Positions 3,708 to 61,521 of a DNA stretch of 64,000 bases are shown here, one piece after another. The translations under genes were made by a program, and so were the position numbers. Positions within the stretch are counted from its first letter, which is position 1. Every line of letters starts with the position of its first letter. The notes under the pieces were generated by a model. The model worked only from the letters and a program-made list of their open reading frames with translations, was not told the DNA's origin and made no database searches. Location: NCBI GenBank assembly GCA_001777655.1, contig MFER01000013.1, forward strand, positions 68,322 to 132,321, in the 5' to 3' direction. Origin of the DNA: Candidatus Doudnabacteria bacterium RIFCSPHIGHO2_02_FULL_43_13b. GTDB lineage: Bacteria > Patescibacteriota > Doudnabacteria > UBA920 > O2-02-FULL-48-8.

Positions 3708-3803
3708 ATTTTAAATGATTTATTTTTAATTTTGATTCAATTTCTAATATTTTAATATTAAAAATTCACTCGAAATTCAAAACTGAAAATTAAAAATTAT
3801 ATT

Positions 3804-5033: not shown

Positions 5034-5107
5034 TGGAGCGGGTAGCGGGAATCGAACCCGCGTCATTTGATTGGCAACCAAATGTTCTACCATTGAACCA
5101 TACCCGC
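5034..5107 (-). tRNA. tRNA-Gly (anticodon GCC)
   Basis: The reverse complement folds as GCGGGTA..TTGCCAA..GGGTTCGATTCCCGC..TACCCGC-T-CCA. Confidence 0.85.
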
Positions 5108-5118
5108 TCAAATATTTT

Positions 5119-5403
5119 TGGTGCCGCAGGTCAGAATCGAACTGACTACGCTCGCCTCTTCCAAAGGCTACTTGGACTATATCATCATCCTTTATAAAAA
5201 GGAGTTGGGCGCTGGTGCAGGGTTATTGTTGGGACTCACCTGCTAGTCTCTACACCTTACAGGAAACCTTCAGCCCTTCCTGCCTTGGCTCGGGATTGTC
5301 TTTTGCAAGAGTTCCCCCGAATTCACCCAATTTTTCTCAAGAACCATTACTGGTTCTGGCCCCAAAGATTTAGGGCGACGCTCTACCAATGAGCTACTGC
5401 GGC
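5119..5403 (-). tRNA. tRNA-Phe (anticodon GAA inferred) interrupted by a group I intron between U33 and G34
   Basis: 5' exon GCCGCAGTAGCTCATTGGTAGAGCGTCGCCCT; 3' exon GAAGAGGCGAGCGTAGTCAGTTCGATTCTGACCTGCGGCACCA. The spliced product is a canonical 75-nt cloverleaf with A73. Confidence 0.7.
5162..5371 (-). ncRNA. Group I intron (IC3-like, tRNA-intron type), about 210 nt
   Basis: P1 pairs exon CCCU with the guide sequence GGGG (U-G at the splice site). P10 pairs UCUUU with the 3' exon GAAGA. The intron ends in G. Core motifs CAAUCCCGAGCCAAG, GGUGUAGAGACUAGC and GAUAUAGUCCAAG match cyanobacterial tRNA-Leu introns. Confidence 0.7.
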
Positions 5404-5427: not shown

Positions 5428-5504
5428 TGGTGGACGCTAAAGGATTCGAACCTTTGACCTTCGCAGTGTAAATGCGACGCTCTAACCAGCTGAGCTAAGC
5501 GTCC
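5428..5504 (-). tRNA. tRNA-Val (anticodon TAC)
   Basis: GGACGCTTAGCTCAGCTGGTTAGAGCGTCGCATTTACACTGCGAAGGTCAAAGGTTCGAATCCTTTAGCGTCCACCA. Confidence 0.85.
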
Positions 5505-9047: not shown

Positions 9048-9121
9048 TGGAGGCGTCAACCGGAGTTGAACCGGTGTAAAAGGTTTTGCAGACCTCTGCC
9101 TAACCGCTCGGCCATGACGCC
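9048..9121 (-). tRNA. tRNA-Cys (anticodon GCA)
   Basis: GGCGTCA..GAGGT-CTGCAAA-ACCTT..ACCGGTTCAACTCCGGT..TGACGCC-T-CCA. Confidence 0.8.
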
Positions 9122-9122
9122 A

Positions 9123-9368
9123 CTAGTCATTCTTGAAACGTTCTTTGAGTATTTCTTTTTGTTGATGAGCCTTGAGAAATCTTTCGCGTCTCACTGCTTC
9201 GCCTCTAGTATTATAACTCTCGGAGCCTAGCAACTTCCAGGGTGCATAAGCCTTTGTAGATCTAACTGACTTATTATTGTGCCTTGCAATTCTGCTGCTG
9301 ATATTCTCACAAGATCCTATATAGAGATCCCCGTTTACTTGGCTTTTAAGAAAATAAACATGGTACAT
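9123..9368 (-). CDS. GIY-YIG nuclease family small protein
   Basis: YHVYFLKSQVNGDLYIGSCENISSRIARHN is a GIY-YIG motif; the gene sits next to the tRNA cluster. Confidence 0.7.
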   Translation of the reverse strand: MYHVYFLKSQVNGDLYIGSCENISSRIARHNNKSVRSTKAYAPWKLLGSESYNTRGEAVRRERFLKAHQQKEILKERFKND

Positions 9369-9561
9369 AAAAAATAAAGAGTTTTGTCCCGCTACGCGGG
9401 ATCTCGCGAAGCGAGACAGACTCCAGCCTTACCCCTTGGCTACCAGGCCATAACTAGCATATTATAGTTTTTTTTTCGGAAATAATCTACACCAGACCAA
9501 TTGATCCTTAAGATCTAACAAAAATCCTAGAATTGATTAAGCATAAAAAAACTGCCTATTG

Positions 9562-10218
9562 CTAGGCAGTTTTTTGCTTTCTATTATCGGCCAATTCTCT
9601 TTCGATATACCCTATCTTTCCAGCAACAGCAGCCCATTTATGATCTCTCCTTAGTATGTCTTTTTCAATACCAGTTATGGCCTGGCGCAAATCCTTCCGT
9701 CTGGTTTCTGAAGTGCTTTCATCGTCGATCATGGATTTAAAATCTCGAATCCGTTGTCTCTCTGATTCTTGCACTTCCATAAATTTTTGGTGTTCAGCTC
9801 TGAGAATAGATAATTGATATTCCAATGCTCCCACCCGTTCTTGGAAAAAAGCTGACGAATAAGCGGCATCTGAACTTCGCCCCGGAGCATCTCTAAACGA
9901 ATAAGTAGAACCATCGGGTGATTGAAGTTCATAATCTATTTTCATATCAACCCAATCCGTATCTCCCTTTTGCTGATGTCTATAATCTATTACTGGAACG
10001 ACGGTTTGAGCAGATTCGATATTTTTTCTGTCATTGGCCAATAAAGGGTTTCTTTGGCGGCCCTCACCATAACTAGCTAAGATATCTTTCCTAAGCTCTG
10101 ACAGCAATGCCGCCTGAAACCTAGCCACCTGCTCTGTAGATTCTCGTCCCGATTCTTGCCCTTCAGGAGTAGCAATCCCCATCTCTTCCGGGGATGGACC
10201 TAATGTGTCTCTACCCAT
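9562..10218 (-). CDS. Hypothetical protein with a coiled-coil C-terminus
   Basis: ORF with a downstream terminator AAAAAAACTGCCTATTGCTAGGCAGTTTTTT at 9545..9575. Confidence 0.4.
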   Translation of the reverse strand: MGRDTLGPSPEEMGIATPEGQESGRESTEQVARFQAALLSELRKDILASYGEGRQRNPLLANDRKNIESAQTVVPVIDYRHQQKGDTDWVDMKIDYELQSPDGSTYSFRDAPGRSSDAAYSSAFFQERVGALEYQLSILRAEHQKFMEVQESERQRIRDFKSMIDDESTSETRRKDLRQAITGIEKDILRRDHKWAAVAGKIGYIERELADNRKQKTA

Positions 10219-13451: not shown

Positions 13452-15914
13452 ATGGATATCGGTAAAGTCAATCCAAGATCAATTGAACGTGAGATGGAGG
13501 AGTCATATTTGGATTACGCGATGAGTGTGATCGTGGCTCGGGCCCTGCCGGATGTTCGAGATGGGTTAAAACCCGTCCACCGCCGAATTCTTTATGCCAT
13601 GTCAGAGCTCGGGCTTCGCTCCAACGTAAAATTTCGCAAATCAGCGGCTGTGGTCGGGGAAGTTTTAGCCAAATACCATCCCCATGGGGACGTCGCAGTT
13701 TATGATTCCATGGTCCGCATGGCCCAAGAATTCGCCATGCGTTATCCCTTAATTGACGGGCAAGGAAACTTCGGTTCCATGGACGGCGATGCCCCGGCGG
13801 CCATGCGTTATACGGAAGCGCGCATGATGGCTTTGGCCGAAGAAATTTTGGCCGACTTGGAAAAAGACACGGTGGATTGGATGGATAATTATGATGCCAC
13901 AAAAAAAGAACCGAAAGTGCTGCCGGCCAAAGCTCCCAACCTGCTGCTCAACGGCACTTTAGGCATCGCAGTCGGGATGGCCACTGATATCCCGCCTCAC
14001 AATTTAGGGGAAGTGGTGGATTCCGTGATTAAATTAATTGAAGAACCACAAACTACGACTGATGAACTAATGGAGTTTGTGAAGGGCCCGGATTTTCCAA
14101 CTGGCGGATTTATCTATGATTGGAATACAATCAAACAAGTTTACGCCACCGGCAAAGGCCCCATCGTCATGCGCGGCCGGACCGAGATTGTGGAAGAAAA
14201 AGGCGTCCATAAAATTCTGATTACGGAAATTCCCTATCGAGTCAATAAGGCAACTCTCTTAGAGCAGTTTGCCGAGCTGGTGAAAGATAAAAGAATCGAA
14301 GGGATTAAAGATCTAAGGGATGAGTCGGACAAAGACGGGGTGCGAATCGTGATTGATCTGAAAAAAGAAGGCTTACCGAACAAAATTTTAAATCAATTAT
14401 TTAAATACTCATCTTTGCAAGAAACCTTCCACGTCAACATGCTGGCCTTGGTAGATGGAATAGAACCGCAGGTTTTGAACTTAAAAAATATTTTAGAATA
14501 TTACATTAAACATCGGGCCGAGGTTATCAAGCGGCGCACTGCTTTTGATTTGAACAAAGCGAAAGACCGCGCTCACATTTTAGAAGGATTAAAAAAAGCC
14601 CTGGATCATATCGATGCAGTGATCCAAACAATTAAGAAATCTGATACCACGGAAGAGGCTCATGCAGCCCTGATAACAAAATTCAAATTGTCAGATAAGC
14701 AGTCAACCGCGATTCTGCAAATGCAGCTTCGCGCACTGGCGGGATTGGAGCGTAAAAAAATCGACGATGAATTGAAGGAAAAACGGAAATTGATTGAAGA
14801 ATTGGAAGATTTACTCAAAAGTGAAAAAAAGATTAAAACCGTGGTCAAAACCGAACTGTTGGAATTGAAAGATAAATATAACAATCCTCGCAAAACCACG
14901 TTAGTGAAACAACCGATTGGAGAATTTAAAGCAGAAGATTTAATCCCCGAGCAATCAACCATGGTAATCGTTACCAGGTCAGGATACGTCAAACGTCTGC
15001 CCCCAGATACTTATAAAACCCAGGGCCGCGGCGGCAAGGGGGTAATCGGCATGACTACCAAAGAAGAAGACGTGGTAGAATGGCTGTCGACGACCAATAC
15101 TCACGATGATATTTTATTCTTTACGAACAAAGGGCGGGTTTTCCAAACCAAAGTCTACGAATTACCAGAAGCTTCCCGCACCGCCCGCGGTCAGGCCTTG
15201 GTCAACTTCTTGGAACTGCCGACTGATGAAATGGTTTCGGCCATCTTAACTTTTTCCAAGAAAATCCCGGCCAAATTTCTGATCCTTTCGACCAAAAAAG
15301 GCTTGATTAAAAAAACCGTAATCGAGGAGTTCGCGAAAGTCAGGCGATCGGGTCTGATTGCTATAAAGCTCAAAACCGGTGACGAACTGCGCTACGTCAA
15401 ATATTCTACGGGCAACGACGATGTGATTTTGTCCACGGCAGGCGGGCAAGCGATTCGGTTTGATGAAAAAGACGTCAGATCCATGGGCCGCGCCACTGCC
15501 GGAGTGAAAGGTATGCGATTGAAATCCGCCAGAGGCGGATCCTCCTCCGGAGGAAAAGATGATTACCTGATGAGTATGGATTTGGTATCCAAGAAAAACA
15601 AACTGGAAAATTTGCAACTTTTGATCGTCACGGAAAATGGCTTAGGCAAAAAAACAGATTTGAAATTCTACAAACGGCAACATCGCGGAGGATCGGGTAT
15701 AAAAACTTTGAAAGTTAGCCCGAAAACAGGCAAGATTGTCTCCCTCCACGTAATTGATAAAACCGAGGAACACGATCTGATGGTTATTTCCAAACTCGGA
15801 CAAACTCTTAGGACCCCCATCGGCAAAATTTCAACGCTGGGCCGCGCCACCCAAGGCGTACGAATCATGACCTTGGATAATAAAGACAAAGTGGCTACAA
15901 CCACAATAATTTAG
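13452..15914 (+). CDS. gyrA: DNA gyrase subunit A
   Basis: [16 protein letters not shown], the active-site Tyr region, and GyrA-box beta-pinwheel repeats. Confidence 0.95.
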
Positions 15915-15999
15915 AATTTACAATTTTGATTGAATTTTCGAAATTTGAATATTTAATATTCATTCGAAATTCATAACTCAAAATTAAAAATTCACTTTC

Positions 16000-16662: not shown

Positions 16663-16702
16663 ATGTACTCTAATCTGACCGATCGGTCAATGGTGAGTAC
16701 AT
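16663..16702. repeat. Nested palindrome ATGTACTC..GACCGATCGGTC..GAGTACAT
   Basis: 8-bp outer inverted repeat around a perfect 12-bp palindrome; the TGACCGATCGGTCA core recurs at 59207..59222. Confidence 0.6.
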
Positions 16703-33946: not shown

Positions 33947-34983
33947 AAAAGTGGTTTGGTTAGGGGTTTATTAATGGGTTTTTTCAAATGATCATAAGCC
34001 GCCGGTGTGGCCACCCGCCCTTTCGGAGTTTTGGCGATTAACCCTAAGCGTAATAAGTAGGGTTCATAAATATCCTCGATAGTCCCGGCATCTTCGGAAG
34101 TGGCAGCGGCGATGGACGTAATACCAACCGGCCCCCCCCCGAATTTTTCAATCAAGGCTTCCAAAATTCGTCTGTCGTTATTATCTAAACCCAAGTCATC
34201 AACTTCCAGCATATTTAAGGCGTCGTGTGCGACTTGTTCTGTGATCTTCCCTCCAGCGCGCACTTGCGCGTAGTCGCGAACTCGCTTGAGCAAGCGATTG
34301 GCAATTCTAGGGGTCCGCCGGGCCCGTTTGGCCACCTCTGCCCGGCCCGTAGATTCGATTTTGATATTCAAAATTTTTGCTGACCGCTCGATAATTTTTT
34401 CAATTTCTGGTTCTTCGTAATAATCTAGGCGGTAAGTCATGCCAAAACGGTCACGCAAGGGAGCTGAGAGCATGCCGATTCTCGTGGTGGCGCCAATTAA
34501 AGTAAATTTAGGCAGATCCAAGCGTAGGGCTTTTGCTCCCGCGCCTTTGCCCAAGACTATGTCCAAACTATATTCTTCCATGGCGGGGTAAAGAATTTCC
34601 TCTACCGTTTTGTTCAGTCGATGGATTTCATCTATGAATAAAATATCATTTTCTGAAAGATTCGTAAGCAACGAAGCTAAATCGCCGGATTTTTCAATGG
34701 CGGGGCCAGAGGTAATCTTAATGCCAACCTTTCCTTCTTTGGCAATAATATGAGCCAGTGTGGTTTTGCCCAAGCCCGGCGGGCCATACAGCAAGAGATG
34801 TTCTAAAGTTTCTTTTCTGCCCGAGGCGGCATCAATGAGAATTTTCAGACTTTCCTTGATTTTTTCCTGTCCGATGTATTCGGATAGCTTTTGCGGCCGC
34901 AGGGTTACTTCAAATAGCGTTTCAGAAGCATCTGGAACCGGGTTGATAATATCGATTTCGGCAACAGTTGGTTCAATAGCCAT
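33943..34983 (-). CDS. ruvB: Holliday junction branch migration helicase RuvB
   Basis: [18 protein letters not shown] Walker A, sensor motifs. Confidence 0.95.
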
Positions 34984-36445: not shown

Positions 36446-36553
36446 CCCGATTAGAAATTTTGATTAGTTAATTATACGATTTAATTAGATTATTCCCGTT
36501 GAATACATTTTTCTTGGCAAAGATGCTTGTGAGTATTTCTAACGGGATTCATA

Positions 36554-37699: not shown

Positions 37700-38081
37700 T
37701 GATTTTGATCGTGATGATTAGATCGCATCGGGTTTTTACTTTCGGAAAACGATCAACCCATTCGATCAGTACCACATTTTTTTCACCAAGAATTTCATCT
37801 AAACCCAAGACCGAAAGTTGGTCCAGTTTTTTCAGCCGATAAAAATCTAGATGAAATAAAACCCGGGAGTCGAACTTATATTGATGGATGACAACAAAAC
37901 TCGGACTGCTGATTTTTTGAATTCCCAAAGCCCGGGCAAAGGCTTTGACAAAGGTGGTTTTCCCAGCCCCCAAGGGGCCGATTAACCCAATCACATGGGC
38001 CTTTTTACGATACCTCATCCCTAGGCTTTTGCCTAGATTTTGAAATTGTTTTAGGCTTAAGTTTTTAAGCTTCATCGCCAT
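37653..38081 (-). CDS. tsaE: tRNA t6A biosynthesis ATPase TsaE
   Basis: LIGPLGAGKTTFVKAFARALGI P-loop. Confidence 0.8.
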   Translation of the reverse strand: MAMKLKNLSLKQFQNLGKSLGMRYRKKAHVIGLIGPLGAGKTTFVKAFARALGIQKISSPSFVVIHQYKFDSRVLFHLDFYRLKKLDQLSVLGLDEILGEKNVVLIEWVDRFPKVKTRCDLIITIKINANQTRNVTIQNHKI

Positions 38082-38082
38082 A

Positions 38083-38225
38083 CCCAGTATATCAACTTCG
38101 ATAAATGGTTTATTGGCTTTTGCATAAAATTAAAGTCTTTATTATAGATTTTTTGCTTAATCTATTATTATTAGTTTGATAATAAAACCATTTAGGGGCA
38201 AAAGCATCGAAGTTGTATTACTGGG
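38083..38225. mobile_element. MITE-like element A, copy 1 (about 143 bp, TIR CCCAGTATATCAACTTCGAT / ATCGAAGTTGTATTACTGGG)
   Basis: Near-identical inverted copy at 48128..48274. Terminal inverted repeats match at 18 of 20 positions. The element starts 1 nt from the tsaE start codon. Confidence 0.65.
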
Positions 38226-38282
38226 CTTATTTTAGCAGCTATTGACGACTTAGCCAAAACCAATTATAGTAATATGATTTAT

Positions 38283-38423
38283 GCCCGGTAGTAGAAATTT
38301 GATATTTATCCCGCGACTCGTGGGATAAATAAAAAACAACCGCGCGATAAAATTTCTTTGCTGGTTATAATAATCAAAGACAATTAGTAACTAATTTATT
38401 CTTTAATCAAATTTTCACTACCG
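38283..38423. mobile_element. MITE-like element B, copy 1 (TIR CCCGGTAGTAGAAATTTGAT / AAATTTTCACTACCGGG)
   Basis: Second copy at 47962..48057 with the same termini. It abuts the ATG at 38427 as ..CACTACCGGGTATG. Confidence 0.55.
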
Positions 38424-38426
38424 GGT

Positions 38427-39566
38427 ATGGAAATCACAGCTCAAATTACCTCAAAAATTTCACAGGCCGCCACAGTCTTGATTATTGTGGCAGGAGATAG
38501 CGGTGATAGCCTGGCCGCCGGTTTAGCATTGCAAGGATTTCTTAAAAAACTGGAGAAGGAAACCGCTGTTTTATCCTTCACCCCGAAATTGAACAAGCTA
38601 GATTTTTTGCAAGGATTTAGGGAGGCTCGGGAAGAGCTGGATGTGACCAAAAGTTTTGTCATTGACGTCTCAACCAAGCAGACGCAAATCGAGGAACTAA
38701 GTTATAAAAAAGAGGTTGATAAACTCTCGATTTTTATTAAACCTAAAAAAGGCCAATTCGAAAAAAATGACATTAGTTTCCGCAGTTCAAACTTTCCCTT
38801 CGATTTATTAATCATGATCGGGGTTGACTCGCTGGACCGTTTGGGGCAGCTTTATAATGAAAATACGGAATTATTTTTTGAAACCCCGATTTTAAATATC
38901 GATTTTAAGGCTACTAATGAAAATTTTGGGCAATATAATCTAGTGAATTTGACTGCCACTTCCAATTCGGAAATTGTGTTTGATTTAATCAACCACATTG
39001 AGGCTACCTTTATTGATGAAGCGATCGCGACTCAACTGTTAACCGGGATTATTTCCGAAACCGAAAGTTTCCAGCATGTTCGGACTACACCCCAAACTTT
39101 TCTCAAAGCTTCCCAGTTAGTCAGTTTAGGCGCCAACCAACAGGAAATTATCTCAAGGCTTTATAAGACGAAAAGTTTGGGGTTACTAAAGCTATGGGGC
39201 CGGGTTCTTGCTCGTCTGCAGCAGGCGCCAGAAATTTCTTTGGTTTATTCGTCAATTAATCAAACCGATCTAGAACGCTCACAGGCTTCGGAAGAAGACG
39301 TTCAGACTATTATCAAGGAAATGTCGATGCAGTTAGGGTTTGCCAAACTGTTTTTATTTTTTAAAGAAGACCAGTCCAACCAAACCTCTGTTTGGTGCCA
39401 CTCCACTCTGCCGGTTGATTTAAGACAAATTTTCGCCCAGTTTAAGCCCAAACTACTCGCTTACCAGACGACCTATTTTAGTTTGAACCAACCGTTATCT
39501 GAGGCGGAAAAACAAATCGTCTCGTTGCTAAAAAGTGACATTGCCAAATATAAATTGAACATGTAA
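38427..39566 (+). CDS. DHH/DHHA1-like phosphoesterase (NrnA-like), possibly degenerate active site
   Basis: NrnA-like architecture with VAGDSGDSLAAGLAL in place of HxNPDGDAxGS and NHI in place of DHH. Confidence 0.4.
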   Translation: MEITAQITSKISQAATVLIIVAGDSGDSLAAGLALQGFLKKLEKETAVLSFTPKLNKLDFLQGFREAREELDVTKSFVIDVSTKQTQIEELSYKKEVDKLSIFIKPKKGQFEKNDISFRSSNFPFDLLIMIGVDSLDRLGQLYNENTELFFETPILNIDFKATNENFGQYNLVNLTATSNSEIVFDLINHIEATFIDEAIATQLLTGIISETESFQHVRTTPQTFLKASQLVSLGANQQEIISRLYKTKSLGLLKLWGRVLARLQQAPEISLVYSSINQTDLERSQASEEDVQTIIKEMSMQLGFAKLFLFFKEDQSNQTSVWCHSTLPVDLRQIFAQFKPKLLAYQTTYFSLNQPLSEAEKQIVSLLKSDIAKYKLNM

Positions 39567-44916: not shown

Positions 44917-45011
44917 CCCATCCCCGAGGCGAGGATTAGCCAAGTGATCGGGGATCTAAATAAAGCCAACTAAGATCCCCGCTCAACTTTAGGAATACTT
45001 AGCGGGGATGG
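44917..45011. repeat. Palindromic repeat family 2 copy (intergenic), preceded by the tandem CGAATACG x3
   Basis: Shares CCATCCCCG..GGGGATCTAAATAAAGC..AAGATCCCCG..CGGGGATGG with the in-frame copy at 863..942. Confidence 0.7.
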
Positions 45012-45959: not shown

Positions 45960-47960
45960 TTACTTGAAACTATGCCGCTTCATCCGTTGTTTTTGGCGGA
46001 TGGCTTGGATTTCATCCCGTAATTTGGCGGCTTGTTCGAAATCAAGATTGCGGGCGGCCAGATCCATCTGATCGCGCAGTTCTTCGATCGCATAAGCAAT
46101 TTCTTGCTTGGTCATTTTGGTCAGATCTCGTTGAGGGGTGAGGGGTGAGGGTTCGGGGGTGAGTTTTTGACCAGCAAGCCGAGATTCGCGAATTGCCTTT
46201 TCTATACCTTTGGGCGTGATGCCATGTTTTTTATTATAATCTTCTTGGATTTTACGGCGACGGAGGACTTCATCCGTGGCCCGCCGCATGGAACCCGTGA
46301 TTTTGTCAGCATACATAATTGCCTTGCCATCTAAATGTCTGGCTGCCCGACCCATGGTTTGGATAAGAGAGGTATCGGAGCGCAAAAATCCTTCCTTATC
46401 AGCATCAAGAATGGCAACCAGTGAAACTTCCGGCAAATCCAAGCCTTCTCGTAAAAGGTTGATCCCCACGACCACATCATAAACACCTATTCGCAAATCG
46501 CGCAAAATTTCCAACCGTTCTAGGGTCTCTACGTCAGAGTGCAGATAATGGACTTTTATCCCATATTCTGTCAGATAATTGGCCAATTCCTCGGCCATGT
46601 TTTTGGTCAAGGTAGTAACCAAGACGCGTTGGTGTTTTTTCACTCGAATTTGGATTTCCTCCATTAAATCATCAATCTGATTTTTCGTCGGCCGAATCTC
46701 GATCTTAGGATCCAACAGGCCGGTTGGTCGGATCAACTGCTCGGCGACTTGTTTTGAGATTTTAAGCTCGCGGTCTTTCACCGGGGTAGCAGAAACAAAA
46801 ATTGTCTGGCCGATTTTTTTCTCAAATTCCTCGAATTTTAAAGGCCGGTTATCGGCAGCAGACGGTAGGCGAAAACCGTAATCAATCAAAGTTTTTTTGC
46901 GGGATTGGTCGCCCAAATACATCCCACCGATTTGCGGCAGTGTCATGTGAGATTCGTCGATAAACAGCAGAAAATCGTCAGGGAAATAATCCAGCAGGGT
47001 AGATGGCGGTTCTCCGGCCTTACGAAAGTCTAGCTGCCGAGAGTAGTTTTCAATCCCTGAGACAAACCCTGTTTCCAGCATCATTTCGATATCGAAATTT
47101 GTTCGCTGCTCAATCCTTTGGGCTTCGAGTTCCTTTCCTTGTTTTTTGAAAAATTTAACCTGATCGGCAAGTTCCTTTCGGATATTGCCAATCGCCGCCA
47201 TTAGCTTTTCTCTCGGTGTGACGAAATGTTTAGCTGGAAAAATAGTATATTCATCCAAGGTCCCGAGATCTTGACCAGTCAGAGGATTGTGCTGGGAAAT
47301 TTTTTCCACCCTATCACCATCAAAATTAAACCGCAAGACCCAATCAGAGGAAGCGGGGATAATTTCGATGACGTCTCCTCTGACGCGGAACGTTCCGCGC
47401 TCTAAATTAATGTCGTTTCGTAAAAACTGCAGATCGGTTAAGCGCCGTAAAAATTTATCTCGCTTGAAAGTCTCACCAATCCTAACTGGAATTGATAATT
47501 CCAAATAATCGTCCGGGGAACCCAAGCCATAGATACACGAAACAGAAGCGACGATCAGGACGTCTTTGCGAGAAAGGAGGCTTTCGGTGGCGGCATTGCG
47601 CAATTTATCAATCTCTTCGTTAATTTCCGTTTCTTTTTCGATATAAGTGTCAGAGCGCGGGATATAGGCCTCCGGTTGATAGTAATCATAATAAGAGACA
47701 AAATAGTGCACAGCGTTATCTGGAAAGAAATTTTGAAACTCTGAGGCTAATTGCGCCGCTAAGGTTTTATTATGAGAAATGATTAAAGTTGGTTTTTGGA
47801 GTTTTTCGATAACGTTGGCCATGGTAAAAGTTTTACCTGAGCCTGTCACCCCCAAAAGCGTTTGGTAGCGGTATTTTTTGGCCAGACCCGCAACTAGTTT
47901 GTCGATGGCATCTGGTTGATCCCCCGCGGGTTTGAAATCGGAATGAATCTTAAACGGCAT
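45960..47960 (-). CDS. uvrB: Excinuclease ABC subunit B
   Basis: [12 protein letters not shown] Walker A, helicase motifs, C-terminal UVR domain. Confidence 0.95.
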
Positions 47961-47961
47961 A

Positions 47962-48057
47962 CCAGGTAGTAGAAATTTGATTAATGCTTAAATTTACTGC
48001 AAGGTGTTATATTAATCTGTTCGCGAAGCGAACAGATATGAAATTTTCACTACCTGG
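47962..48057. mobile_element. MITE-like element B, copy 2
   Basis: CCAGGTAGTAGAAATTTGAT...AAATTTTCACTACCTGG with the internal hairpin CTGTTCGCGAAGCGAACAG. It starts 1 nt from the uvrB start codon. Confidence 0.55.
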
Positions 48058-48127
48058 CATAGTAAATTTCATTGTAGCAGAAATTTGTTGCGGGTGTATA
48101 GACCAACAGAGTATAATACGTTTATGA

Positions 48128-48274
48128 CCCAGTAATACAACTTCGATGCTTTTGCCCCTAAATGGTTTTTGAATTAACCTTCATTAGTTATATGACTAAG
48201 AATACAGTTAATAATAATGGTTTTTTTAGCGCAAAAGCGCACACAAAAACCATTATCGAAGTTGATATACTGGG
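48128..48274. mobile_element. MITE-like element A, copy 2 (inverted relative to copy 1)
   Basis: Its reverse complement aligns along its length with 38083..38225. It ends ..GTTGATATACTGGG directly at the ruvA ATG. Confidence 0.65.
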
Positions 48275-48841
48275 ATGATTGGATCAATTAAAGGCAGGGT
48301 TTCCAACAAAGGCACAGGGTACGCCATCCTGGATACTGGCAGTGTTGGCTATAAGATTTTTATTACTCCCACGCTTTGGGCGACCTTGAAGTTAAATCAA
48401 GAGATTGTTTTAATGATTCATACTTATGTTCGAGAGGATCAGCTCACTTTATATGGATTTCCCAGTTTACCAGAACTAGAATTTTTTGAACTACTCCTGA
48501 CTGTTTCCGGCGTCGGACCCAAATCGGCTTTAGGGATCATGTCTTTAGCTTCGATTGAGATGATCAAATCAGCGATCGTGTCAGAGGATCCGTCGGTGTT
48601 TACTAAAGTATCAGGGATTGGCAGAAAAACGGCGGAACGCGTAATTTTGGAATTGAAAGAAAAACTAAAAGATGAATCGTCGTCAACTCCGGTCGCCAAA
48701 GAACATTCGGATGCGATGGACGCCCTGATCGCGCTGGGGTACACTCAACAACAAGCCCGGGAAGTCTTAAAAACTGTACCCAAAGATGTGGTGGATTTGC
48801 AGGCCAAAATTAAGATGGCATTGAAGAGTTTAAATAAGTAA
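48275..48841 (+). CDS. ruvA: Holliday junction DNA helicase RuvA
   Basis: MIGSIKGRV N-terminus and the HhH motifs VSGVGPKSALGI / VSGIGRKTAERVI. Confidence 0.9.
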   Translation: MIGSIKGRVSNKGTGYAILDTGSVGYKIFITPTLWATLKLNQEIVLMIHTYVREDQLTLYGFPSLPELEFFELLLTVSGVGPKSALGIMSLASIEMIKSAIVSEDPSVFTKVSGIGRKTAERVILELKEKLKDESSSTPVAKEHSDAMDALIALGYTQQQAREVLKTVPKDVVDLQAKIKMALKSLNK

Positions 48842-58600: not shown

Positions 58601-58724
58601 AAGCGGTATACTAACGCCATGAATCCCGTTAGAAATTTCACATTGCGAGTTTATACTAAAAACACTCTCTGACGGGCTGATTATAAAGAAATTATTTATT
58701 AACTAATCAAAATTTCTAAACGGG

Positions 58725-59165: not shown

Positions 59166-59295
59166 AAATCCGCTCGGACACTGCTAAAAAATCTGAGATG
59201 TATGCACATTTGACCGATCGGTCAGCTAAGAGTACAAAAAGAAAAGCGGTTTAGTAGGTTAGATCCTGAAACGAGTTCAGGATGACGAATATTTT

Positions 59296-61521
59296 TTAGT
59301 TTAATTTTATCGGCCATTTTTCGACCAGCAGTAGGTTCTTGTGATTGATTTGCCAGGCGGCTTCGGTAACGAACGGCACGAATGGATGCAGGAGTTTGAG
59401 GCAAGTTTCCAAGACAGTTTTTAACATTAGTTGGGTGGAAGCCTTGGTTTTTGGATTGGCTAGCTGAGCTTTGGATTCTTCGATAATTTTATCAGCGAAG
59501 GTATGCCAAAAGTAATGATAGAGATTTTCTGCCGCATGGGCGAGGTCTTGTTTGTCCAAAAGTTTAGTTGTGCCATTAGTTACTTTGTCTAAATTTTTCA
59601 GGATGACTTTGTGAGCAGGGGCTAATTGAGCTGTTGCGTCCATGCCCTCTGTGTTTTGCATGACAAACCGAGCCGCGTTCCAAATCTTGTTGGCAAAGTT
59701 TCGGTAGCCGCGGACTTTATCTTCTGATAGCGGCAAATCATTGCCTGGCAAGTTGCCGACAACCAAAGCCATCCGCAGAGCGTCGTTGCCATAAATATCG
59801 ATCACGCCCAAAGGATCAATGACATTGCCCTTGGACTTGCTCATTTTTTGGCGATCTTTATCGCGCACCAGGCCATGAAGGTAGACGTTTTCAAACGGCA
59901 CCTGCCCGGTTTTGTAAAGCCCGAACATAATCATCCGCGCCACCCAGAAGAAGAGAATATCCCAACCAGTTTCCATCATTTGGGTCGGGTAAAAAGTCTG
60001 GAAGTTTATACCCCCCCTAGCCCCCCCTATGTTAGGGGGGGAATCTCTCTGTTCTCCTCCTTTCAAGGGGGAGTTAGAGGGGGTATTATCTAATGCCATG
60101 AGTGTGGCATATGGCCACTGACCGGAAGAAAACCAGGTGTCGAAAGTGTCAGGATCCTGGACCCAACCTTCCCCTGGCGATGCTTCTGAAATTTTCAGCT
60201 CATTGTCTTTATACCACACCGGGATCGGAATGCCCCACCAGATTTGGCGAGAAATCGGCCAGTCACGGATGTTTTTCATCCAATGCATTAGCACTTTTTC
60301 AAATTTTATTGGATTTATTTTAACTTTTTTATTTTTTACAGCATTTACGACCAAATCACGCAGTGAAATTTCGAATTTTGAATTTCGAATTTTGAATTTT
60401 TTTGTCATTGCCACATACCACTGGGGGATGATCAGGGGTTCCAGGACATTCTTACACTTGTAGCATAGTGACACGTTGTGCTTGTAAGTTTCATCGATTT
60501 TTTCCAGCAGTCCCAGCTTCTGCAGATCTTCGACAACTACCTTGCGTGCTTCGGCGACCTTCAGTCCGTGATATTTCGTGTTGGGCAAGTCCATCTTACC
60601 TCGCTTATCAATAACCTGTTTGGGCCCTGGGATTTCATCTTTTCCGCCGGGGACGGATCCGCCTTTGGCGGAATGTTTCTGCCAGATTTCGAAATCTGCG
60701 GCATCATGCGCCGGTGTTACCTTGACTACCCCGGTGCCGAAATCTTTATCTACTAGTTCATCCGCAATCACTTTGATTTTAAATTTGCCCAAAAGTCCTT
60801 CAGCCTCCAGTTCTTGGCCAATGTATTTTTTATATCTGGTATCTTTCGGATTGACTGCCAAGGCCGTGTCGCCAAATTTGGTTTCCGGCCGCACTGTCGC
60901 CAAAGTCAGCGGGCCGTATTTGATGTAATAAAGCGGATCGGTTCGCTCTTCGTGCTCGGTTTCGAGGTCAGCTAGGCCGGTTTGGTGTTTGACACACCAG
61001 TTGCAGATGCGGTTGCCGCGGTAAATCAGACCGTCGCGGTACATTTGCTCAAATGTTTCGTAAACGATTTGGATAATCCGCGGATCCAGGGTAAACATAT
61101 TGCGCGACCAGTCAGTCGAAGCGCCGAGGCGGCGAATGCCGTCTTCGGTTTGCTGTTTATAGTCCTGCACGAAATCCCAGACTTCTTTATAAAATTCCTC
61201 CCGCGTCATCTGAAAGCGTGACCGGCCTTCTTTTTCCAGTTTTTTCTCAAACACGACTTGGGTTTCGAACCCGGCATGATCCGTGCCGGGTAGCCAAAGG
61301 GTTTTTCGGCCGCGCATGCGTTCGAAGCGGATCATGATATCTTGCAGAGTAAAGCCTAATGCGTGGCCGACATGGACTTGGCCGTTGGCATTAGAAGGCG
61401 GCATGATGATCGTATATGGCTTGCCCGACAGATTATCGGGATTAAAAAAACCTGACTCTTCCCAGAGTTTGTAAATCTTGGACTCTTTGGATTGGTCATA
61501 GGTTGTGGGGATGTCGCGCAT
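59296..61521 (-). CDS. valS: Valine--tRNA ligase (short form) carrying two in-frame repeat insertions
   Basis: HVGHALG (HIGH) and KMSKSKGN motifs, editing domain. Insertions lie at 60009..60090 (G/C-homopolymer palindrome) and 60361..60400 (tandem). Confidence 0.85.
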   Translation of the reverse strand: MRDIPTTYDQSKESKIYKLWEESGFFNPDNLSGKPYTIIMPPSNANGQVHVGHALGFTLQDIMIRFERMRGRKTLWLPGTDHAGFETQVVFEKKLEKEGRSRFQMTREEFYKEVWDFVQDYKQQTEDGIRRLGASTDWSRNMFTLDPRIIQIVYETFEQMYRDGLIYRGNRICNWCVKHQTGLADLETEHEERTDPLYYIKYGPLTLATVRPETKFGDTALAVNPKDTRYKKYIGQELEAEGLLGKFKIKVIADELVDKDFGTGVVKVTPAHDAADFEIWQKHSAKGGSVPGGKDEIPGPKQVIDKRGKMDLPNTKYHGLKVAEARKVVVEDLQKLGLLEKIDETYKHNVSLCYKCKNVLEPLIIPQWYVAMTKKFKIRNSKFEISLRDLVVNAVKNKKVKINPIKFEKVLMHWMKNIRDWPISRQIWWGIPIPVWYKDNELKISEASPGEGWVQDPDTFDTWFSSGQWPYATLMALDNTPSNSPLKGGEQRDSPPNIGGARGGINFQTFYPTQMMETGWDILFFWVARMIMFGLYKTGQVPFENVYLHGLVRDKDRQKMSKSKGNVIDPLGVIDIYGNDALRMALVVGNLPGNDLPLSEDKVRGYRNFANKIWNAARFVMQNTEGMDATAQLAPAHKVILKNLDKVTNGTTKLLDKQDLAHAAENLYHYFWHTFADKIIEESKAQLANPKTKASTQLMLKTVLETCLKLLHPFVPFVTEAAWQINHKNLLLVEKWPIKLN
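60009..60090. repeat. G/C-homopolymer palindrome CCCCCCCTAGCCCCCCCTATGTTAGGGGGGGAA..GGGGGAGTTAGAGGGGG in frame within valS
   Basis: Encodes the low-complexity segment ..NSPLKGGEQRDSPPNIGGARGGINF.. inside ValS. Confidence 0.6.
60361..60400. repeat. Tandem repeat ATTTCGAATTTTGA x2 in frame within valS (encodes KFKIRNSKFEIS)
   Basis: A related tandem AAATTCAAAATCC sits in tsaD at 63026..63060, both next to CGCGAAC/GTTCGCG-type hairpins. Confidence 0.55.

Follow-up and report, generated by a model that had tools for sequence, protein, structure and literature searches.

We analysed a 64,000-nt stretch of contig MFER01000013.1 from Candidatus Doudnabacteria bacterium RIFCSPHIGHO2_02_FULL_43_13b (the window, meaning this whole 64-kb stretch) and found two families of short repeats, A and B, that fill two divergent intergenic regions, tsaE/DHH and uvrB/ruvA. 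The likely explanation is that A and B, together with a related element C, are non-autonomous foldback elements of the MITE type (miniature inverted-repeat transposable elements), inserted into ancestral start sites. A first-pass annotation of this DNA had pointed out repeats with terminal inverted repeats (TIRs) in both regions, and the arm matches indeed lie far above the 0.01–0.02 expected by chance. Its coordinates for A agree with ours, as do those for one B copy (47962–48057), but the other B copy spans 38284–38425 and not 38283–38423. The four elements are as follows.

38083..38225, minus strand: element A copy 1, 143 nt, in the tsaE leader
38284..38425, plus strand: element B copy 1, 142 nt, in the leader of the DHH/NrnA-like gene, 'AG' arm on the 5' side
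47962..48057, minus strand: element B copy 2, 96 nt, in the uvrB leader, 'GA' arm on the 5' side
48128..48274, plus strand: element A copy 2, 147 nt, in the ruvA leader

The neighbouring genes tsaE, uvrB and ruvA were identified by Pfam, and the DHH gene was assigned as an NrnA-like phosphoesterase from the names of its homologues. With up to three mismatches allowed, the 20-nt A arm CCCAGTATATCAACTTCGAT matched the window at four places (38083+, 38206−, 48128+ and 48255−), against 0.02 matches expected from shuffled sequence. The B arm CCCGGTAGTAGAAATTTGAT matched at 38284+, 38406− and 47962+ under the same limit and at 48038–48057 with four mismatches, where 0.01 matches were expected. The two A copies are mutually inverted and have in common 53 nt at the inner end (91% identity) and 29 nt at the outer end (90%), with different centres. 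In copy 1 the gene-facing outer arm is 38083–38102 and the promoter-facing inner arm 38206–38225; inner and outer arms differ by 3 nt (TAATA versus TATAT), identically in both copies. Of its 20 positions, the A arm shares 13 with the CCC variant of the B arm; the A and B inner arms, which lie in inverted orientation, agree at 15 of 20. Every family, C included, is imperfect 8–11 bp in from the terminus, with a 3x3 loop (A), an A.C and a G.U (B) or a bulge (C). The only open reading frames (ORFs) within the window copies of A and B are upstream ORFs (uORFs) of 3–17 codons. Both elements thus have the size (below about 300 bp), the ~20-nt TIRs and the lack of full coding capacity that characterise MITEs; occurrence at multiple unrelated loci is clear for B and weak for A (two copies). 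As previously annotated, the outer ends lie 0–1 nt from four ATGs, namely 0 nt at ruvA and 1 nt at tsaE, DHH and uvrB. Assemblies with an identical RuvA carry the same ~314-nt uvrB/ruvA spacer wherever uvrB is on the contig too.

The elements are flanked by 4-bp direct repeats. B copy 1 lies between TATG at 38280–38283 and TATG at 38426–38429, and B copy 2 has TATG on the gene strand on both sides (plus-strand CATA at 47958–47961 and 48058–48061). A copy 2 lies between ATGA at 48124–48127 and ATGA at 48275–48278, and its upstream ATGA opens a 3-codon uORF, ATG ACC CAG TAA. A copy 1 has one clear repeat.

38079..38082, minus strand: duplication on the gene side of A copy 1, TATG on the gene strand

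Its counterpart on the promoter side (38226–38229) reads TAAG, identical to TATG at three of four positions, and looks like one mutated duplicate. With slashes marking element ends, the ruvA site therefore reads ..TATAAT-acgttt-ATGA/A/ATGA-TTGG, the uvrB site (gene strand) ..TACAAT-N10 ending in TATG/B/TATG-CCG, the DHH site ..TATG/B/TATG-GAA and the tsaE site TAAG/A/TATG.

Orthologous sites that are empty were found in the related loci L148, L147, L010, L011 and L016, among others. At ruvA in Doudnabacteria-type relatives, A was absent in 10 of 10, and 9 of these read TATAAT-N6-ATGAT(T/C)GG. The uvrB/ruvA spacers of L148, L011, L016 and L010 contain neither A nor B; that of L148 is 62 nt long, CAT-agcaaactttATTGTAgca...TTGCGGgtgtatagag...TATAATgccttt-ATGATTGG, and matches the inter-element core of the window. 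When the elements and one duplicate each were deleted in silico, the region became colinear with the relatives, with identities of 78% to L148, 73% to L011 and 60% to L016, figures that cover the reconstructed site plus short coding flanks (L148, L011). The tsaE/DHH spacer measures 345 nt in the window versus 70–115 nt in four relatives, and A is absent from it in L147 and L148. These comparisons show A and B to be insertions at ancestral start sites, with 4-bp duplications, the start codons themselves being ancestral and duplicated by the insertion.

The first-pass annotation had offered MITEs and a duplicated, conserved regulatory cassette as alternatives. The TIRs, the 4-bp duplications, the empty orthologous sites and the many B copies elsewhere support MITE-type mobile elements, while the cassette, for which only two copies and the same sequence in relatives would be expected, is contradicted by the empty orthologous regions. 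The count of copies and search for target-site duplications that it had proposed gave at least 117 metagenome loci for B, with a duplication most often of 4 bp, and two copies for A. That one cassette was copied between the divergent gene pairs by segmental duplication, or that the likeness arose by chance, has a negligible probability in our view: the same pair of families does occur at both loci, but A and B stand in the opposite order and orientation at the two, the inter-element cores are mutually unrelated and each orthologous to the empty site of relatives, the B copies (142 versus 96 nt) have only their arms in common, with unrelated interiors, and chance predicts 0.01–0.02 arm matches.

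Under the insertion model, each event would duplicate 4 bp holding the start codon, leaving one copy by the old promoter and placing the other at the head of the gene, so that the element end comes to lie flush with the ATG. Each divergent pair would have taken one A and one B, with the ancestral two-way promoter core left between them. In L018, which is another species, the same uvrB start codon carries a 141-nt B element unlike that of the window, and L010 and L011, at least as close as L018 by RuvA identity, lack B there; this pattern of occupancy points to one site used repeatedly, or to precise loss.

The two promoter cores lie between the elements.

38226..38283, both strands: divergent promoter core of tsaE and DHH, ancestral, conserved in L147 and L148
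48058..48127, both strands: divergent promoter core of uvrB and ruvA, ancestral

At both loci, predicted sigma-70-type promoters sit between A and B and face outward. A consensus scan and direct reading of the tsaE/DHH core (38229–38270) gave TTGACG-17-TATAGT on the plus strand and TTGGCT-17-TAAAAT, with TG before it, on the minus strand; L147 and L148 share the core blocks TATTTTAGCA, TTGACG, TATA(G/T)T and ATGATT. The uvrB/ruvA core has TG-TACAAT-N10-ATG on the minus strand, with TACAAT ending at 48071, and TTGCGG-18-TATAAT-N6-ATG on the plus strand, with TATAAT at 48112–48117. All predicted −10 boxes stop 3–13 nt short of the inner arm of the element they face, so each element is expected to be transcribed whole as a 5' leader. 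This leader would be 96–147 nt long, and its paired arms would bring the 5' end of the transcript beside the start codon. An invertible promoter switch was considered and rejected, as the core is symmetric and divergent and is present in arm-free relatives, where inversion would change nothing.

The first-pass annotation had proposed instead that the elements carry promoter and start-site modules, with a TATACT box giving leaderless or near-leaderless transcripts. In this reading the outer-arm TGATATACT acts as an extended −10 that yields such mRNAs, and the elements spread expression signals. TGATATACT is indeed present in the outer arm of A, and the same 9-mer is the extended −10 of the leaderless-type genes 33943− and 39613+; a tsaE start at the second ATG would put the box 10 nt before it, as in the native uvrB and DHH promoters; and Correia elements of Neisseria create promoters at their ends (PMC2649163). 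However, the box in the A outer arm lies 3–4 nt from the ATG, versus ~6 nt in leaderless promoters of this genome and its relatives. At ruvA the distance is 3 nt, transcription starting 7 nt past the box would skip the ATG, and the RuvA_N alignment begins at residue 1. The B and C arms have no −10 hexamer with the essential A at position 2 (TCTACT, TCACTA), the native promoters between the elements are conserved in element-free relatives, and in the wider family described below the arm follows a nuclease ORF as an intercistronic spacer. We therefore consider promoter modules highly improbable.

Many window genes have a −10 box ~6 nt before the ATG (e.g. TGATATACT-N6-ATG), so leaderless or near-leaderless mRNAs look normal in this genome. 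The recurrent geometry is (TGn)TATACT or TATAAT, 6–9 nt and ATG, without a Shine–Dalgarno (SD) sequence, as at the genes starting at 34983 (−), 39613 (+), 12186 (−), 32227 (+) and 12252 (+) and at a uORF at 58619; leaderless initiation seems common in Doudnabacteria. The true tsaE start is probably the second ATG (38075–38073), 6 nt downstream of the annotated start (38081), because it aligns with the L148 start and restores TAAAAT-N6-ATG once A is removed.

B belongs to a large family. An exact-pattern scan of JGI metagenomes with the B arm returned at least 117 loci, and 99 unique paired elements were extracted among the matches listed, to which the following counts refer. (A generic scan for any hairpin abutting an ATG was too noisy to use.) Most of the 99 are 120–145 nt long, with conserved arms and largely unalignable interiors. 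The flanking direct repeat was most often 4 bp (43 of 79), and in B's own orientation it was CATA or GAGG, less often TATG, with the consensus S-A-K-R. Two insertion classes accounted for most copies.

Flush with a start codon (TATG/../TATG-ORF): 40 of 99, the upstream arm being 'GA' in 35 and 'AG' in 5
Flush with an SD sequence (GGAGG/../GAGG-N4-5-ATG): 31 of 99, all with the 'AG' arm upstream

Orientation was tied to class (35:5 versus 0:31; Fisher p = 3e-15), and in L152 and L296 tandem elements sit on one regenerated target. The B family is thus widespread in Patescibacteria (candidate phyla radiation, CPR), its elements lying flush with start codons or SD sequences in an orientation fixed by class. 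Named hosts are the Patescibacteria group, Portnoybacteria and Berkelbacteria, plus Doudnabacteria (the window and L018).

The genes 3' of B have no common function and are unrelated housekeeping genes, so a LexA/SOS-type repair regulon was rejected. By N-terminal sequence they look like rpoB, rpsD, rpsK, rpsQ, rpmI, rplC, ftsA, glmS, pgk, ruvC, uvrB, nusA, ssb, murB and pilins; names given by the source itself cover only S11, a ribosome-hibernation factor and NusA. When exact sequences from the flush ATG were looked up, 10 of 10 were proteins predicted by public gene callers.

Some members of the family show additional features. In SD-class elements (e.g. L157, L161, L176 and L199), an internal third partial arm, GTAGTGAAAA, stands beside the 3' arm TTTTCACTAC; judging from these sequences, the 3' arm could form either a long-range stem or a local hairpin beside the SD sequence, a possible alternative-structure switch. 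The left arm in L150, L200 and L201 is split by a GC-rich insert of ~45 nt (CCAGGTAGT/cccgcctgccaacgcctga..|..GGCGGGCAGGAGAAATTTGAT), which appears to be a smaller hairpin element nested inside the B arm. A solo B arm (L158, 13565–13584; L240, 3765–3784) is followed by GAGG-N5-GTG and lies ~60 nt past a XerC/D-like tyrosine recombinase gene. A 2-kb arm-bounded element containing this recombinase was ruled out at both loci, as the partner 'arm' is a chance 9-mer in a DedA-like ORF.

The same arms also bound longer elements, whose small GIY-YIG gene makes use of the host start site. They are ~310–420 bp long, and their interior is filled by a GIY-YIG ORF of 86–97 aa. The 86–90-aa ORFs of L153/L189 (423 bp, at an SD sequence) and of the 317-bp L196 (ATGA/../ATGA) matched Pfam PF01541 with 58 bits (cut-off 22.6; E = 1e-15), and L235 starts and finishes inside further nuclease-bearing copies. 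The nuclease has 817 homologues at E ≤ 1e-8, with Berkelbacteria, Nealsonbacteria, Harrisonbacteria and Patescibacteria as named hosts. When homologue clusters were picked by protein alone, B-type arms surrounded the ORF in four of four.

L266, same locus as L196: ATGA/CCAAGTAGTAGAAATTTGAT..TCAAATTTTCACTACCTGG/ATGA
L276, before a T2SSE ATPase gene: TATG/CCCCGTAGTAGAATTTCAAA..TTTGAAATTTCACTACGGGG/TATG
L286/L294, before an AMMECR1 gene: ATG/CCAGGTAGTGAAAATTCGAC..GTCGAATTTCTACTACCTGG/TATG
L296, next to a MITE copy: 5' flank TATG, 3' flank CAAG, no host gene after the 3' arm

In L266, L276 and L286/L294, the nuclease ORF and the host gene point in the same direction; the ORF's stop codon stands directly before the 3' arm, and the host ATG follows ~20 nt on. 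The L286/L294 ORF opens at the duplicated host ATG itself and reads through the arm (MPGSENST..). MPGSEN, the translated arm, occurs at or near the N-terminus in 21 of 120 homologue clusters, and a peptide of the same type opens the vestigial uORFs of 33 start-codon MITEs, both window B copies included (MPGSRNL.. and MPGSENF..). The closest solved structures are the UPF0213 proteins 1zg2 (E = 4e-8) and 1ywl and SLX1 chains, and the nuclease resembles UPF0213/YhbQ-type proteins and SLX1 in size, single-domain architecture and best structure matches; its match to NCBIfam TIGR01453 is weak (24–27 bits versus a cut-off of 56). To our knowledge, UPF0213 proteins have never been described as cargo of TIR-bounded mobile elements. 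The nuclease may cut hairpin or cruciform junctions.

We propose that the nuclease element, having no promoter or ribosome-binding site of its own, would use host transcription and initiation; its duplication would restore the signal of the host gene, and its 20-nt arm would serve as an intercistronic spacer. The MITE copies A, B and C would then be internal-deletion derivatives mobilised in trans, and the MPGS(E/R)N.. uORFs remnants of the nuclease N-terminus. By resemblance, A may be placed in the same superfamily, given the 13 arm positions identical to B, the CC..GG ends and the same duplication and placement. Use of host signals would explain the placement of the elements, which a weak S-A-K-R preference plus viability would by themselves explain poorly.

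There is a substantial chance that the parent element represents a new class of mobile element. More specifically, and tentatively, the B-armed GIY-YIG elements might constitute a new class of autonomous mobile element reduced to a minimum, with ~0.3–0.4 kb among the smallest known, in which a bare SLX1/UPF0213-like nuclease cuts 4-nt targets as well as the base of the hairpin or cruciform into which its own TIRs fold, and the sticky ends of the excised DNA re-ligate only into the same tetranucleotide. If so, the duplicated sequence would be heritable, which would explain lineages tied to TATG or to GAGG, and the elements would be obligate hijackers of host translation-start sites that have left A/B-like MITEs as hairpin leaders on essential genes across CPR.

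The same data can be read with an ordinary DDE transposase, for example an IS1380/piggyBac-like one, that mobilises the elements, the GIY-YIG gene being a passenger or secondary invader and the placement resulting from weak target preference and survival in compact genomes. TIRs and a modal 4-bp duplication are the classical DDE signature, the S-A-K-R consensus could by itself explain the tie between orientation and class, and an arm mismatch pattern without strand bias, given below, fits constraint at the DNA level. The ends CC..GG and the 4-bp duplication of a preferred tetranucleotide are also shared with IS1380 and piggyBac, which are related to each other; IS1380 elements typically have CC-starting ends and duplications of 4–5 bp (ISfinder tables), and a patchy distribution at one site would be accounted for by precise excision, should this take place. 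Their target, however, is TTAA and not TATG or GAGG, the elements here are ~10 times smaller, and no DDE gene was found between or near the arms in the fetched loci. Neither a DDE transposase nor a transposase-sized arm-bounded element was found in ~630 kb of fetched B-bearing loci, the single 2-kb candidate being a chance match. Arms were present around every nuclease homologue looked up (the four clusters), and an ORF that exactly occupies the interior and, in 21 of 120 clusters, employs the duplicated ATG is hard to square with a passenger. On this evidence a DDE-driven origin seems unlikely.

Transcription would place a strong hairpin before each gene. Folding of each element had been suggested in the first-pass annotation, and it gave stable hairpins for all four leaders, at −35 to −56 kcal/mol with z of −5.8 to −9.4 (A copy 1, −40.1 kcal/mol, z −5.8; B copy 1, −56.2, z −9.4; B copy 2, −35.3, z −7.3). 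In the predicted folds of the B leaders, the duplicated UAUG can pair with the start codon. No SD sequence is present in the leaders. Across arms, 10 of 20 pairs have changed on both sides, a level reached in 0 of 500 shuffles; compensatory double changes are equally expected for co-evolving TIRs.

Several points weigh against mobile elements of this kind or against their link to the nuclease. Among the 99 B elements, 28 were not assigned to a start site, many of them at contig ends. A has only two copies, both in the window, with none in the viral contigs or in ~860 kb of related and B-bearing loci, and what links it to the nuclease family is resemblance. No nuclease gene of the TIR type was found in the window, and its GIY-YIG gene at 9123–9368 (−), tried as a partner of A and B, was rejected, since it lacks arms and falls in a separate subfamily associated with tRNA-Cys. 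We know of no GIY-YIG enzyme that performs transposition, and a separate transposase could act with the nuclease as passenger. The arm co-variation can reflect descent from a few subfamilies. Single arm mismatches on the mRNA strand comprise 16 G.U and 18 A.C, without strand bias, and with no excess of G.U nothing shows selection on pairing at the RNA level. In four orthologous pairs, arms changed at 2 of 160 positions versus 64 of 717 third codon positions, a comparison that is biased, as the loci were found by exact arm matches. Arm constraint may act on DNA (recognition, or hairpin formation in mobility) rather than on RNA.

The slow change of the arms would also be expected if the window copies had been domesticated, that is, kept by the host as cis-acting RNA such as an mRNA-stabilising hairpin, an RNase III site or a control of translation for DNA-repair and tRNA-modification genes. 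Their hairpins are very stable, with the base adjoining the start codon and the UAUG duplicate able to pair with it; predicted −10 boxes ending 3–13 nt before the inner arms would make the hairpin 5'-terminal; and compensatory changes keep internal hairpins between L165 and L198. RNase III is encoded on a related Doudnabacteria contig, and in Neisseria this enzyme cleaves the Correia TIR hairpin, by which expression of neighbouring genes can change (PMC2649163; PMC10969869). Nevertheless, relatives have the same genes without the elements, B-downstream genes share no function, interiors are unrelated between copies, and the sense strand shows no excess of G.U over A.C. A known RNA family was likewise rejected, as Rfam 15 gave no match in the window at gathering scores and only noise at E ≤ 1 (MIR4208, 21.6 bits versus 140; EF0408_EF0409, 15.4 versus 440). 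Domestication is accordingly a minor possibility in our assessment.

If A and B are inserted leaders, the question arises of how a normally leaderless gene is translated with a hairpin of −35 to −56 kcal/mol flush against its AUG. Translation of a uORF from the promoter-proximal ATG could open the stem; this ATG is kept in ~30 of 32 start-codon copies. Alternatively, RNase III could cleave the ~20-bp TIR duplex, by analogy with Correia elements. We consider these two the most likely routes. For tsaE only, the TATACT box of A, 10 nt before the probable true start, might add transcription. Coupling of the MITE uORF to the host ATG was rejected, since the uORF ends a median of 69 nt upstream. An in-frame translated insertion was rejected as well, since element length plus 4 shows no preference for multiples of three and stop codons come after a median of 21 codons.

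Such translated insertions are known for Rickettsia palindromic elements (RPEs), small palindromic mobile elements in coding regions that are in frame and, like those of the window, tolerated at seemingly lethal positions since the gene stays functional. The elements described here differ in lying directly upstream of the ORF, with the start signal regenerated. They share with Correia elements (CREE/NEMIS) a length of 100–155 bp, TIRs of ~20–26 bp, a position adjacent to genes, co-transcription and a TIR hairpin. In Correia elements, however, the duplication is TA, placement with respect to start codons is not fixed and promoters can arise at the element ends, and no full-length form encoding a nuclease is known, whereas the elements here have a 4-bp duplication (TATG, GAGG or ATGA) and hosts in Patescibacteria, not Neisseria. 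The likeness is functional only; in our judgement the arms here are unrelated to the Correia TIR consensus. Free-standing GIY-YIG homing endonuclease genes, such as the T4 seg genes, and intron-encoded I-TevI are selfish genes that lie between host genes and are expressed by the host. The nuclease described here resembles them in this lifestyle, and its weak TIGR01453 match, though below the cut-off, fits the likeness. Homing endonucleases are ~200–250 aa long, with a DNA-binding domain, are copied at the same locus by recombinational repair and have neither TIRs nor a duplication; the nuclease described here, in contrast, is a bare catalytic domain of 86–97 aa with TIRs, many unrelated loci and 4-bp duplications. 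The literature searched held no account of MITEs that target start codons or SD sequences, of Patescibacteria MITEs or of GIY-YIG elements bounded by TIRs, and the B/GIY-YIG family is apparently undescribed.

If our interpretation is correct, this is a type of mobile element that inserts at the translation-initiation signals themselves, start codon or SD sequence, and the 4-bp duplication regenerates the signal, making insertion non-lethal even before rpoB, ribosomal protein genes, ftsA, uvrB and ruvA. Its sole cargo would be a 90-aa GIY-YIG domain that borrows the host promoter and even the ATG, which would give a role to many small ORFs in CPR metagenome-assembled genomes that are named 'GIY-YIG nuclease family' or misnamed 'excinuclease ABC subunit C'. 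There are also consequences for annotation: such repeats break assemblies, with many arms at contig ends, and can mislead start calls, as in nuclease ORFs with the MPGSEN.. extension and in the probably wrong first ATG of tsaE.

The related element C has two copies in the window.

36446..36546, minus strand: element C copy 2, between the VanW stop codon and the M17 aminopeptidase start
58625..58724, plus strand: element C copy 1, before the Gmad2 gene and after a TATACT-N6-ATG leaderless promoter

In both copies TGAA is duplicated inside the start codon, and the terminal A of the element rebuilds the ATG. The arms of copy 2 are (T)CCCGTTAGAAAT and ATTTCTAATCGGG(A), and those of the family (T)CCCGTTAGAAAT..ATTTCTAA(T/A)CGGG(A), or also CCCGTTAGAAAT..ATTTCTAACGGG; the VanW–M17 gap measures 15 nt in one relative. 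Scanning viral contigs with a 14-mer C pattern gave mostly chance matches and three real C elements, and no A or B arms were found in the viral-contig scans. C-type elements of the same layout occur in L020 (7479–7554) and in the three IMG/VR contigs, where they lie at gene starts (L062, ~10173–10217; L068/L092), one of them preceding a radical-SAM gene. Across copies the duplication is TGAA or TGCA, and the upstream copy opens uORFs beginning MNPVRN.

The window's own GIY-YIG gene encodes 81 aa (9123–9368, flanks 9048–9455) and lies between a 5' tRNA-like half, GGCCTGGTAGCCAAGGGGTAAGGCTGGAGTCTG, with GC-rich hairpins, and an intact tRNA-Cys. The tRNA-like half appears broken off in the anticodon loop. 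In other CPR genomes (L302, L303 and L304), a homologous ORF follows a tRNA-like half and hairpins and precedes a tRNA-like sequence, as judged by eye. The gene has the look of a nuclease element, intron-like or targeting tRNA-Cys, that differs from the TIR type. At 5152–5381 (−), Rfam detected a group I intron (RF00028, 66.7 bits) between tRNA-Gly (5034–5107) and tRNA-Val (5428–5504); the ~45 nt on either side might be two halves of one split tRNA gene, uncalled by ARAGORN.

The window contains further repeats. A 77-nt AT-rich repeat with inverted ends (AATTTTGAT..TCAAAATT) occurs at 3722–3798 and 15916–15992 (83% identical) and ends 5–7 nt short of a start codon, that of a bactofilin gene in one place and of an RsmI-like methylase gene in the other; it may be a fourth family of leader-embedded elements. 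Repeat pairs of 38–49 nt lie at 16664–16702 and 59198–59236, at 894–942 and 44918–44966, and at 15525–15562 and 60635–60672, and could be terminator-like or protein-binding hairpins, or more mobile elements. The first of these pairs is palindromic, TGTACTC..TGACCGATCGGTCA..GAGTACA, and both of its copies begin no more than ~35 nt past gene ends (16662 and 59165).

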